Origin: an uncultured Solirubrobacteraceae bacterium
GTDB lineage: Bacteria > Actinomycetota > Thermoleophilia > Solirubrobacterales > Solirubrobacteraceae
Direction of reading: 5' to 3'
DNA: 64,000 nucleotides
Assembly: GCA_963781935.1 (NCBI GenBank)
Contig: CAWAHX010000006.1
Coordinates: 4,481-68,480, forward strand
The stretch's first letter is position 1; each line of letters starts with the position of its first letter. Under the pieces are notes generated by a model, which searched no databases, was not told where the DNA came from, and worked only from the letters and a program-made list of their open reading frames with translations. Position numbers and translations under genes: made by a program. Shown piece after piece: positions 52,263-54,750 of the stretch.

Positions 52263-52295
52263 CAGGTCTTGCCCGGCGCTACCCTCCGCAGCGCC

Positions 52296-53273
52296 ATGTC
52301 ACGCGTCCTCGTCACCGGCGGTGCCGGCACCATCGGTCAGGCCGTGGTGCGCCGTCTTCTTCGCGATCCGGACTTCGAGGTCCGCGTCTCCGATCAGCGC
52401 GAGGCACCAGGATGGATGCGCGAGGGCTGCGAGGTCCACACCGGCGACCTGCGCGACCGCGCCGAGGCCGGGAAGGCCACGGCGGGCTGCTCCCACGTGA
52501 TCCACCTGGCGGCGATCGTCGGTGGGATCGCGAACTTCCACAAGCTTCCCTACACGCTGACGGACGTGAACTCGTCGCTCTACAACGGCGTGGTCGGTGC
52601 CGCGATCGAGCACCACGTCGAGCGCTTCGTCTACGTGTCGTCCTCGATGGTGTTCGAGAACGCCACGCAGTTCCCGACGCCGGAGAGCCACGTGCGGGAA
52701 TGCCCGGTGCCCCGATCGGCCTACGGCTTCAGCAAGCTCGCCGGCGAGTTCTGGGTGCGCGCCGCGCACGACGAGCACGGCCTGCCGTACACGATCTGCC
52801 GCCCGTTCAACGCGTACGGCCCGGGCGAGATGCCCGAGGACGAGCCGGGCATCGCGCACGCCGTCCCCGACCTGATCAAGAAGTGCCTCGCGCTGCCCGA
52901 GGGCGCGCCGCTGCCGATCTTCGGTGACGGGACCCACACCCGCACGCTGACCCACGTCGACGACATCGCCGACGGCATCGTCACCGCGACCGGCGCGCAG
53001 GCGGCACTGAACGAGGACTTCAACGTCTCCGCCTCCGACGAGCTGACCGTCGCAGAGATCGCCCGCGTCATCTGGGAAGCCTGCGGCCGCGACCCCCAGG
53101 CATTCGCGCTCGAGCACCTCCCGAGCTTCGAGGTCGACGTCGTGCGGCGCTGGCCGGACGTGTCAAAGGCCCGAGAGGTGCTCGGGTGGGAGGCGCAGAT
53201 CGATGTGCGGGATGGGGTGGCGGCGACGGTGGAGTGGCTGCGCGGGGTTGCGCCCCCCGGCGGGGCGGGCTGA
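52296..53273 (+). CDS. NAD-dependent sugar epimerase/dehydratase (SDR)
   Basis: MSRVLVTGGAGTIGQAVV, VSSSMVFE, YGFSKLAGEF. ATG 52296 is preceded by TACCCT at 10 nt. Confidence 0.8.
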   Translation: MSRVLVTGGAGTIGQAVVRRLLRDPDFEVRVSDQREAPGWMREGCEVHTGDLRDRAEAGKATAGCSHVIHLAAIVGGIANFHKLPYTLTDVNSSLYNGVVGAAIEHHVERFVYVSSSMVFENATQFPTPESHVRECPVPRSAYGFSKLAGEFWVRAAHDEHGLPYTICRPFNAYGPGEMPEDEPGIAHAVPDLIKKCLALPEGAPLPIFGDGTHTRTLTHVDDIADGIVTATGAQAALNEDFNVSASDELTVAEIARVIWEACGRDPQAFALEHLPSFEVDVVRRWPDVSKAREVLGWEAQIDVRDGVAATVEWLRGVAPPGGAG

Positions 53274-53642
53274 GGGACGGTTTGTGGAGGGACGTCCTGT
53301 GGTGGGCGCTGAGACTGATCAGAACGCGCCTGCGGCGCGTTCTGTCCTGCCAGGGGGCGTTACAGAGTGACTCGGTGCACCCCTTCGGGGCGCCCCGAGG
53401 ACATCCTTGGCTGGCCTGGGTCGTCCCACCAGCGGCCGGCCCGCAGCACCCGGCGGCTCGAGAGGCGGCCTGGTCGTCCCGCCGGCGGCCACGCCCGCAG
53501 CACCCGGCGGCTCGAGAGGACTGCCCGCAGGGCAGTCCTCTTCAGTCCGTGGTAACGCCCCCTGGCAGGACAGGAATGCCCGCAGGGCATTCCTGATCAG
53601 TCTCACGAGCCCTCCACAGGCCGTCCCTCCACAGGCCGTCCC
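53274..53642. repeat. 369-bp imperfect palindromic element: ~90-bp inverted arms (53274-53363 / 53552-53642) around a 188-bp core
   Basis: The inner 53 bp of the arms are GAGACTGATCAG-[8-bp stem]-TGC-[stem']-CTGTCCTGCCAGGGGGCGTTAC (53311-53363) and its reverse complement (53552-53604). They are identical except for the 8-bp stem cores (AACGCGCC versus GAATGCCC), which are each self-complementary. The outer arms are GGGACGGTTTGTGGAGGGACGTCCTGTGGTGGGC versus the complement of GCCCTCCACAGGCCGTCCCTCCACAGGCCGTCCC. Confidence 0.75.
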
Positions 53643-53667
53643 CCAACGTCGTCCCACCACCAGCCAG

Positions 53668-53779
53668 GCCCGCAGCACCCGGCGGCTCGAGAGGACTGCC
53701 CGCAGGGCAGTCCTCTTCAGTCCGTGGTAACGCCCCCTGGCAGGACAGGAATGCCCGCAGGGCATTCCTGATCAGTCTC
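53668..53779. repeat. Exact 112-bp direct duplicate of 53493..53604 (period 175 bp)
   Basis: The read-out of both copies is identical: GCCCGCAGCACCCGGCGGCTCGAGAGGACTGCCCGCAGGGCAGTCCTCTTCAGTCCGTGGTAACGCCCCCTGGCAGGACAGGAATGCCCGCAGGGCATTCCTGATCAGTCTC. A third partial copy of the first 27 bp lies at 53439-53465. Confidence 0.8.
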
Positions 53780-53796
53780 CGACGTCCCGCCACCCC

Positions 53797-54750
53797 TCAG
53801 GAGCCGGCGGCGGCCTTGAGGTGCTCCAGCACCGCCCGCATCCCATCCTCCAGCCGCGTGTCCGCCGTGAACGCGAGCTCGGCCCTCGCGCGCGAGACGT
53901 CGAGTGAGCTGCGCTGGAGCTCGCCGAGGCGCTCGGGCTCGAAGTCTGCGGAGAAGGTCGCTTCGTCGACGCCGGCGGCCTCGCGCAGCGCGTCGATGAC
54001 GTCGAGCACGGAGGACTCGACCCCGGTGCCGATGTTGTAGGCACCGTGCGCCTGTGGGTGGGCGGCGGCGGCGAGGTTCGCCTGCACGACGTCGCCGACG
54101 TAGGTGTAGTCGCGCAGCGCGCGGCCGTCCCCGTAGACGATCGGGCGCTCCGACTTCAGCAGGCGACCGGCGAAGATCGCGATCACGCCCGCCTCGCCCG
54201 CCGGGTCCTGCCGCGGCCCGTAGACGTTCCCGTAGCGCAGCGTGACGGTCGACAGGCCGTACAGGCGCGAGTACCAGGCGCAGTAGAGCTCGGCGCACTG
54301 CTTGCTCTGGCCGTAGGCCGCCATCGGGAACGGCGTCTCGGTCTCCGGGGTCGGCATCACGTCGGTCTCGCCGTAGATCGCGCCGCCGGTCGACGTGTTC
54401 ACGAGCCGGCGCACGTCGTGCGCGCGCGCGGCCTCGAGCACGTTGATCGTTCCGACGACGTTGATGCCGGCATCCCACGCGGGATCCTCGATCGACTTGC
54501 GCACGTCGATCTGGGCGGCCATGTGAAAGACGGCGTCGGGGCGCTGTGCGGCGAACACCTCGCCGACCGTCTGCGCGTCGCGGATGTCGACCTCGTGCAG
54601 TGAGGCCCCGCGCGTCAGCGCCTGGGAGAGGTTCTCCCGCCGGCCGCTCGACAGGTCGTCGATGACCGCGACCTCGTCCCCGCGGTCGAGGAGGGCATCC
54701 ACGAGGTTCGAGCCGATGAAGCCGGCACCGCCGGTGACGAGAGCGCGCAT
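53797..54750 (-). CDS. UDP-hexose 4-epimerase-like SDR
   Basis: MRALVTGGAGFIGSNLVDALL, NTSTGGAIYG, YGQSKQCAELY. Intact 317-aa ORF. TAGCAT lies 9 nt before ATG 54750. Confidence 0.75.
   Translation of the reverse strand: MRALVTGGAGFIGSNLVDALLDRGDEVAVIDDLSSGRRENLSQALTRGASLHEVDIRDAQTVGEVFAAQRPDAVFHMAAQIDVRKSIEDPAWDAGINVVGTINVLEAARAHDVRRLVNTSTGGAIYGETDVMPTPETETPFPMAAYGQSKQCAELYCAWYSRLYGLSTVTLRYGNVYGPRQDPAGEAGVIAIFAGRLLKSERPIVYGDGRALRDYTYVGDVVQANLAAAAHPQAHGAYNIGTGVESSVLDVIDALREAAGVDEATFSADFEPERLGELQRSSLDVSRARAELAFTADTRLEDGMRAVLEHLKAAAGS

Follow-up and report, generated by a model that had tools for sequence, protein, structure and literature searches.

The 523-bp gap between the stop codons of two convergent sugar-epimerase genes in an uncultured Solirubrobacteraceae bacterium holds three copies of a structured unit of ~53 nt, and we read it as probably, if by no means certainly, a compound cluster of a new, lineage-specific, REP/MITE-like non-autonomous interspersed repeat that inserts in one orientation after TAG. 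Copying of the units is well supported by the comparison of loci presented here, and the mechanism that would carry it out is deduced from that comparison. The cluster lies in a window of 64,000 nucleotides, the whole stretch of DNA that was analysed, which corresponds to C6:4481-68480 of the host genome (G000), a MAG of 3.3 Mb in 10 contigs with 71.5% G+C whose closest relative is G060 (MFD05942.bin.3.275). Unprefixed coordinates refer to the window and those prefixed C1 to C10 to contigs of the host genome. Kilobase-scale duplications between contigs of this MAG (C9/C10, C4/C3 and C7/C3, 93-99% identity, e.g. C9:7682-15386 and C10:123075-130780) and a broken ychF frame suggest strain mixture and residual long-read errors.

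Repeat architecture of the intergenic gap

The two flanking genes both end in TGA, at 53271-53273 for the upstream gene and, read as TCA on the + strand, at 53797-53799 for the convergent one. The features of the locus are as follows:

52269..53273, + strand: upstream NAD-dependent epimerase/dehydratase gene (Pfam PF01370, E = 4.7e-47)
53274..53310, - strand: GGGAC/GTCCC-type 15-mer tail of unit 1, pairing with 53609-53645 at 86%
53311..53363, - strand: unit 1 with hairpin A (core AACGCGCC, hairpin 53320-53344); covariance model R1, 78.3 bits, E = 5.6e-29; equals C6:57791-57843
53364..53551, strand not assigned: interior of the inverted doublet, 188 nt; identity with the C10 and C5 copies 93-96%
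53371-53399: hairpin C (CTCGG..TTC..CCGAG), in the doublet interior
53438-53465 and 53492-53519: two 28-nt direct repeats, in the doublet interior
53515-53541: hairpin E with a 12-bp stem, in the doublet interior
53552..53604, + strand: unit 2 with hairpin B (core GAATGCCC, hairpin 53571-53595); R1, 77.2 bits
53605..53647, + strand: GTCCC-rich tail of unit 2, with the tandem 15-mer CCCTCCACAGGCCGT twice (53610-53639; repeat finder)
53648..53779, + strand: tandem copy of 53473-53604 (period 175 nt), 132 nt at 96% identity with the last 112 bp exact, containing the third 28-mer
53690-53716: second hairpin E, within the tandem copy
53727-53779, + strand: unit 3 with hairpin B (53746-53770); R1, 77.2 bits
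53780..53796, + strand: short GTCCC-containing tail of unit 3 (CGACGTCCCGCCACCCC), reaching the stop of the convergent gene
53797..54750, - strand: convergent NAD-dependent epimerase/dehydratase gene (Pfam PF01370, E = 8.5e-64; ORF list)

The first-pass annotation of this DNA, made from the letters alone, had described the gap as built throughout from nested palindromic repeats, with no evident coding capacity. Its six points on the architecture were all borne out, and no coding capacity is evident. The inverted arms, which it had put at about 90 bp, were resolved by the repeat finder into an inner pair (53310-53363 vs 53552-53605, 54 nt, 81% complementary) and an outer pair (53271-53307 vs 53609-53645, 37 nt, 86%), the inverted repeat starting at 53271 and hence enclosing the TGA stop of the upstream gene in its outer arm. 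The inner 53 nt of the arms differ solely in an 8-nt stem core, AACGCGCC vs GAATGCCC, each core being accompanied by its own complement, and all five 25-nt hairpins have perfect 11-bp stems closed by TGC or GCA loops. The 112-bp direct repeat is exact (53493-53604 = 53668-53779) and is surrounded by a looser one of 132 nt with 96% identity and a period of 175 nt (repeat finder); a 27-mer occurs three times (53439, 53493 and 53668), and the palindromes TGATCA and CTCGAG are present. By their arrangement, units 1 and 2 are a REPIN-like inverted doublet.

Folding, one of the checks that had been proposed, gave z scores, relative to dinucleotide shuffles, of -15.3 (+ strand) and -13.0 (- strand) for the 523 nt, and the architecture is therefore far beyond chance. 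An Rfam search of the region yielded as its only match a sub-threshold Guanidine-II riboswitch (53386-53432, - strand; 17.8 bits vs a gathering score of 32, E = 0.87), which we rejected as a chance match on hairpin-rich sequence. No terminator-like site or T-tract was found in 53000-54100, and the putative role as bidirectional terminator that the first-pass annotation had put forward thus draws no support from a T-tract.

Anatomy and folding of the unit

BLAST of the parts combined with inspection defined a basic unit of ~53 nt (range 49 to 54 nt) composed of GTAACGSCCCCTGSCAGGACA, a variable perfect hairpin and TGATSAGTCTC. Its 5' module, G(T/C/G)A(A)CGG, is joined by a mini-hairpin of 3 bp (G-S-C / CCCT / G-S-C) and the spacer AGGA to a main hairpin that is perfect over 9-12 bp, begins CAG...CTG and has an interior free to vary. 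The 3' module, GAT(C/G)(A/G)NTCTC, often has at least one GTCCC-containing 15-mer beyond it: GTCCC occurs within 20 nt downstream in 29 of 117 units, mostly 2-5 nt past the unit end, vs 2.8% of control windows, and these tails explain the 15-mer "outer arms" of the window. Rfam searches of six related loci returned no matches.

The unit was modelled as a covariance model (R1) with 53 positions and 14 pairs. Across 48 distinct sequences, 98.5% of stem cells are paired, vs 74% in shuffles, both-sided changes occur in 10 of the 11 main-stem pairs, and the mini-hairpin has as its middle pair CG in 34 cases, GC in 10 and AU in 2; the alignment thus shows covariation of both stems. The 105 distinct units carry 68 distinct hairpins, and orthologous loci of different species have different stems with clean compensatory changes (L170/L185, L122/L149). 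The fully compensated stem differences remarked upon in the window therefore represent a true, family-wide covariation. Wobbles on the strand running from GTAAC to GTCTC are distributed unevenly, with 12 G:T or T:G pairs vs a single A:C or C:A pair, and 10 of the 12 belong to a single stem pair, spread over five or more distinct stem contexts. The excess of G:T over A:C identifies the GTAAC-to-GTCTC strand as the strand that folds, as RNA or as single-stranded DNA.

Two variants of the unit were also observed. At C1:74930-74971, a full unit is preceded by two hairpin-less mini-units, GTAACGCCCCCTGGTCTCC and GGGAACGCCCCGTGGTCTCC, which consist of the 5' module fused to the terminal GTCTC, as though the main hairpin had been precisely deleted. 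The 13-nt 5' module (GCACGGCCCCCTG) is often tandem-duplicated between a TAG stop and a full unit, as seen at many loci (L182, L169, L172, L185, L174 and, in the host genome, C10:101110-101130).

Copy number, range and insertion history

Searches with R1 detected ~20 full units at 11 loci of the host genome and 2 to 87 matches in each of 15 of the 45 genomes of the same GTDB genus, the largest number being found in G014. The units of the host genome and the matches of G014 all lie outside long ORFs. A scan of 150 further genomes of the order (147 from the other 54 genera and 3 congeners), run with stricter Infernal filters, produced no match with R1, no report on repeats in this bacterial group was found in the literature searched, and Rfam holds no such family. 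Judged by these searches, the unit family is previously undescribed and limited to one group of soil Solirubrobacteraceae.

The count of copies by BLASTN that had been suggested for the terminal unit revealed a dispersed, extragenic, hairpin-forming repeat of the REP/BIME/MITE kind, and not a mere local duplication. Arm versions A and B are each found with 100% identity at other loci (BLAST), with identical copies of unit 1 at C10:300556 and C5:1318927. The doublet, made up of unit A (-), a 130-nt interior and unit B (+), measures 237 bp in its simplest copy (C10:300373-300609) and is 92-100% identical at three loci; it is present at three loci of the host genome and in G060, and the other congeners sampled contain mostly single units. 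A subfamily with at least five near-identical copies occurs in G015 and G059. The whole compound of the window, in the order doublet, 15-mers, half interior and second unit B, is found again at C5:1319098-1319537 (BLAST; 80% identity, query positions 36-509) and also in G060. The proposal that the element has partly duplicated is thus upheld as regards the 175-nt tandem copy, which is present, and has to be revised in that this copy is not private to the locus: given the compound at other loci, the partial duplication is either older than the block or was copied along with it.

Comparison of orthologous sites bears on the history of these insertions. Four syntenic relatives (L024, L026, L030 and L033) carry the same two convergent genes with just 17-40 bp between their stops, and the cluster was therefore inserted. 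At the orthologous site, G060 has a cluster of ~525 bp that is differently arranged. A 172-bp block, consisting of an extra inverted unit and a GTCCC-rich tail, is present at C5:1318928-1319099 and missing in G060, with flanks ~96% identical, and many units of other genomes correspond to orthologous sites that are empty in the host genome. Comparison of the host genome with G060 uncovered no case in which a single unit next to a TAG had been cleanly gained or lost. Taken as comparative evidence, these data show that the family is dispersed, with near-identical copies at non-homologous loci and a presence or absence that differs among close relatives.

Several further repeats were noted in the course of this survey. 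Unit-derived tandem arrays occur in the host genome at C5:478043-478400 (68-nt period, ~5.5 times) and C10:101126-101263 (43-nt period, 3 times), both with the 5' module in the first copy only; array copy number differs in G060, a VNTR-like behaviour. A segment of ~1.47 kb beside the ychF unit (C3:213498-214970) is absent from G060 (L138) and is bordered by a second copy of the unit 3' end and flank (GTGATGACTCTCAAGGCGCCCACCCAAGCTCAGCGAGC). A second structured repeat of ~100 nt, which we call element B, consists of GGTCGCGGATCTCGTGGCGCC, a long covarying hairpin and CCACGATCTCTCGCTCC and has no Rfam match. Its copies follow closely upon gene stops and immediately upon tRNA genes, at C5:83850-83955 (+), C5:1190400-1190505 (-), C3:143515-143552 (+) and C5:1337560-1337655 (-) in the host genome, as well as at loci L187-L191, L194, L112 and L126. 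Element B forms the 5' end of a multi-copy element of 330-400 nt in G015, G059, G046 and G008; this longer element starts 2-10 nt past a TAG stop and terminates in another hairpin and the 53-nt unit.

Placement after TAG stop codons

The placement of units was analysed on a sample of 117 units from ten genomes. A TAG ends exactly at the unit 5' end in 37 of them and within 15 nt in 11 more, TAG being present in 2.1% of control 16-nt windows, and 37 of the 117 start 0-1 nt past the stop of a co-oriented upstream gene. For 54 units, a long, high-GC3, co-oriented ORF ends between -20 and +4 nt of the 5' end, and the stops of these ORFs (TAG 46, TAA 5, TGA 3) can be set beside a genome-wide usage of TGA 57%, TAG 41% and TAA 2%. 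Convergent-gene stops at the unit 3' end match the background (TGA 20, TAG 9). These counts show that, across the family, the unit 5' end abuts the TAG stop of a co-oriented gene, and this oriented placement is what most distinguishes the family. The window's own units do not follow the typical order of TAG and then sense unit, and further units of the host genome lie antisense to the nearest gene or in divergent-promoter gaps (C10:300373, C5:478043 and C1:74972).

Unit-free sites provide information on the order of events. At ychF, the same codon is a TAG stop in the majority of ~30 unit-free orthologues taken from other Solirubrobacterales; at this locus, therefore, the TAG predates the unit. 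Among 13 empty orthologous sites in the host genome, the stop is TAG in eight and TGA in five; the five TGA sites mean that TAG as target and a unit that brings or selects TAG are not separated. A hairpin following ychF in other genera (CTGGCACGGCGCCAGG) was considered and set aside, since it is not a dispersed repeat and its counts equal the control pattern. In another Solirubrobacteraceae MAG (L232, CAVUNG010000001.1), a different tandem hairpin repeat, GCCGGCACGGAGCGCCGGCCGTCCCTCCAGATC, is located just after ychF, from the TAG stop onwards, and shares the GTCCCTCC motif with the 15-mers of the window.

Target-site duplications, which the first-pass annotation had advised looking for, are not visible as direct repeats at the flanks of the three doublet copies or of single units. 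An IS630-type CTAG/TA target was discarded: the 3' junction has no TA, and the composition of the base preceding TAG is that of third codon positions. A read-through peptide was likewise discarded, since with unit lengths of 49 to 54 nt no frame is kept, as was an attC/integron origin, there being no GTTRRRY/RYYYAAC pair and the units following core genes scattered over the genome. At two or more relatives' loci (L157, L153) the unit sits between the stop and the gene's own hairpin and T-rich terminator, which argues that the unit is not itself a terminator.

This placement also bears on an alternative to which we assign a low probability, namely that the units are functional 3'-UTR RNA modules, selected for their effect beside a UAG stop, with mobility being secondary or extinct. 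Candidate roles for such modules would be mRNA 3'-end protection or the modulation of RF1-dependent termination or ribosome release, and an influence on termination or ribosome release has been reported for REPs near stop codons in E. coli. An RNA-level role would fit the TAG link, with units co-oriented with the upstream gene and starting 0-1 nt past its stop in 37/117 cases and a stop-codon bias confined to the 5' side, and it would fit a wobble asymmetry that points to the sense strand, the persistence of units at orthologous loci across species with compensatory changes, and their location within the transcript, upstream of the gene's own terminator. The same role fits poorly with the antisense arrangement of the window and the antisense and promoter-gap units listed above, and it would be odd for a needed function to be represented by anything from 0 to 87 copies in congeners whose genomes are alike in size; moreover, identical copies at unrelated loci would still call for a copying mechanism.

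Search for a mobilizing enzyme

A RAYT or TnpA(REP) partner had been named as a candidate to look for. Six-frame searches for the Y1/RAYT domain (PF01797) in all 45 genomes of the genus, with control genomes detected correctly, found none in 13 of the 15 unit-bearing genomes, which are MAGs with an estimated completeness of 56-96%, and no match in the host genome or in five high-copy congeners. The matches in the genus are a strong one in the unit-free G047 and a weak fragment in G059, neither of them near a unit. The TnpB zinc-ribbon (PF07282) is absent from the host genome, the sole genome searched for it, and the reverse transcriptase domain RVT_1 (PF00078) is absent from all unit-bearing genomes.

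Nor did the searches retrieve a parent insertion sequence with matching ends, as BLAST of the arms finds short elements only and self-BLAST of the host genome reveals almost no IS elements; self-BLAST repeats longer than 1 kb were rejected as IS, since they are either strain-duplicate contigs or paralogous genes. A single transposase-like gene was detected in the host genome; it belongs to the IS110 family (C5:~1995070-1995890; PF02371, 83 bits, truncated DEDD domain), with a 267-bp fragment of it at C10:284947-285213, and has no unit nearby. IS110 (PF01548, PF02371) was rejected as a partner, its presence in the genus not tracking that of the units: G014, with 87 units, lacks IS110. A 403-aa ORF bracketed by units in G060 (L133), examined as a candidate autonomous element, encodes a collagen-repeat protein and not a transposase.

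Comparison with known systems

Among described elements, the closest in form are the REP/BIME/REPIN elements of Enterobacteria and Pseudomonas, which are associated with a RAYT transposase (PMC3116915, PMC3337134, PMC5581495). The RAYT gene of such a genome is usually flanked by the repeats, and inverted doublets (REPINs) are the form that replicates. The unit family resembles them in consisting of short extragenic palindromes that are lineage-specific, number tens of copies per genome and usually lie just after genes, in forming inverted doublets with a spacer (in G000 and G060), and in building BIME-like clusters with other motifs. It differs in that no RAYT was found with it, in its greater unit length of 53 nt, which accommodates two hairpins and a conserved flank of ~30 nt that is not palindromic, in a main stem that is perfect and widely varying (68 hairpins in 105 units) whereas a REP is an imperfect palindrome, in its head, G(T/C/G)A(A)CGG plus mini-hairpin and not of GTAG type, and in the anchoring of its 5' end on TAG stop codons.

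It is very improbable that we are dealing with an ordinary REP/REPIN family whose RAYT, a domesticated Y1 transposase, was missed in incomplete MAGs. Genomes that are 56-96% complete leave room for such a gene, and extragenic palindromes, the doublets of G000 and G060, and orientation-specific placement with no target duplication are what such a family would present; yet among the 45 genomes of the genus PF01797 was detected only in G047, which has no units, and in G059, where a weak fragment lies near no unit; the control genomes were detected correctly, the conserved 5' motif is not GTAG, and the stems are perfect and highly variable instead of following one master sequence.

The ends of IS200/IS605 elements and their gene-less derivatives (PATEs), which move by single-strand "peel and paste" transposition (PMC3201880, PMC5027513), share with the unit a single folding strand, a hairpin with conserved flanks and placement, with constant orientation, immediately 3' of a short fixed sequence, the exact junctions of the unit being putative; terminal inverted repeats are not needed and target duplication is not seen. 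On the other hand, the apparent target of the unit would be of 3 nt (TAG) vs the reported 4-5 nt of IS608 (TTAC), one hairpin of the unit would have to serve both ends, and no TnpA(Y1) was found in unit-bearing genomes, the weak PF01797 fragment of G059 aside, with TnpB absent from G000, the sole genome searched. Because the defining enzyme is absent, membership in IS200/IS605 or REP is not claimed.

MITEs such as Correia/NEMIS and those of Coxiella (PMC5896051) provide a third comparison. The 237-bp doublet is MITE-like in being non-coding and multi-copy, with 53-nt terminal inverted repeats and stop codons at its ends; its arms of 53-54 nt are 81% complementary, and the single unit is without terminal inverted repeats. 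It departs from MITEs in that the searches revealed neither a target-site duplication nor a parent IS sharing its ends, and in that the single 53-nt unit is the commonest form in congeners. The unit also recalls an intrinsic terminator, as a GC-rich hairpin just past a stop codon, but it is without a T-tract, its conserved flanks are common to unrelated genes, and in relatives it is followed by a separate hairpin and T-rich terminator. The MIRUs of mycobacteria are direct repeats without a long perfect hairpin, located inside operons with overlapping stop and start codons. The two families are alike in being actinobacterial, with gene-oriented intergenic units of 40-100 nt that touch stop codons and form variable-number tandem arrays (in the unit family, at C5:478043 and C10:101126), and MIRUs have no sequence similarity to the unit.

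It is also very hard to sustain the notion of an array of double-stranded DNA sites bound by a host protein (nucleoid, gyrase or regulator; BIME-like) in which the hairpins are incidental. The putative sites would be the palindromes CCTGSCAGG and CTGATCAG and the GTCCC 15-mers; short palindromes are indeed conserved on both sides of the variable stem, and the GTCCC tails are repeated in iteron fashion. Set against this, the strand-asymmetric wobble and strict stem covariation show that intrastrand pairing is what is kept, and a double-stranded site needs neither TAG adjacency nor a fixed orientation to genes. A purely local palindromic duplication unique to the locus, of which the 175-nt tandem copy is the type of rearrangement to be expected, is refuted by the copy census, which places units, and also the compound in its entirety, at many other loci and records units in 14 other genomes.

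Proposed origin of the cluster

The reading that we prefer, a compound cluster of a copied, non-autonomous interspersed repeat, can be set out as a sequence of putative steps. The block would have been inserted into a former spacer of 17-40 bp between the two convergent epimerase genes, with two inverted units around a 188-nt hairpin-rich interior making up the doublet and a third unit arising through tandem duplication (175 nt) of the right half of the doublet. Units may be copied, now or in the recent past, by a trans-acting enzyme that recognizes the folded single strand and inserts them immediately 3' of TAG, always in the same orientation and with no target duplication, at junctions whose exact position is putative. 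Such a process would be formally like IS200/IS605 or REP single-strand transposition, and its enzyme would not be a Pfam-recognizable Y1 transposase. Clusters would then grow through adjacent insertion and slipped or unequal recombination between units. Transcription from either side would be predicted to place very stable RNA hairpins in both 3' UTRs, and these would probably, as a side effect, impede read-through and 3' exonucleases. Weighing against this reading are the failure of the searches to find a mobilizing enzyme, the five empty sites that end in TGA and the atypical order of the window's own units; the perfect stems, moreover, could also be maintained through template-switch correction of palindromes, without selection.

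A stop-codon-anchored new class of element is also conceivable, and we deem it rather doubtful. An unrecognized enzyme, other than a Y1 transposase, TnpB or a reverse transcriptase, would insert a sense-strand-folded unit specifically after TAG, or the module would be kept at such stops alone through an effect on RF1-dependent termination or on the fate of UAG-terminated mRNA; in either case the identity of TAG would belong to the biology of the element and would not be a by-product.

Implications

Small structured repeats shape bacterial intergenic space, and they are well understood in few Proteobacteria only, where RAYT copies them. For genome annotation, clusters such as the one described here are to be treated as repeats, not as genes or riboswitches; they break assemblies and create tandem arrays of variable copy number. 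The present family is unusual in several respects: its recent copying, of which the signs are clear, takes place in uncultured soil Thermoleophilia whose genomes are otherwise nearly free of mobile elements, with no recognizable transposase, reverse transcriptase or parent IS; its link to stop codons is strictly orientation-specific and concerns TAG, not TGA; and its structure is conserved in a strand-specific manner. If the TAG link reflects insertion chemistry, a single-strand mechanism with site specificity that has not been described before would be indicated; a functional basis of the link would tie a repeat family to release-factor-specific termination.
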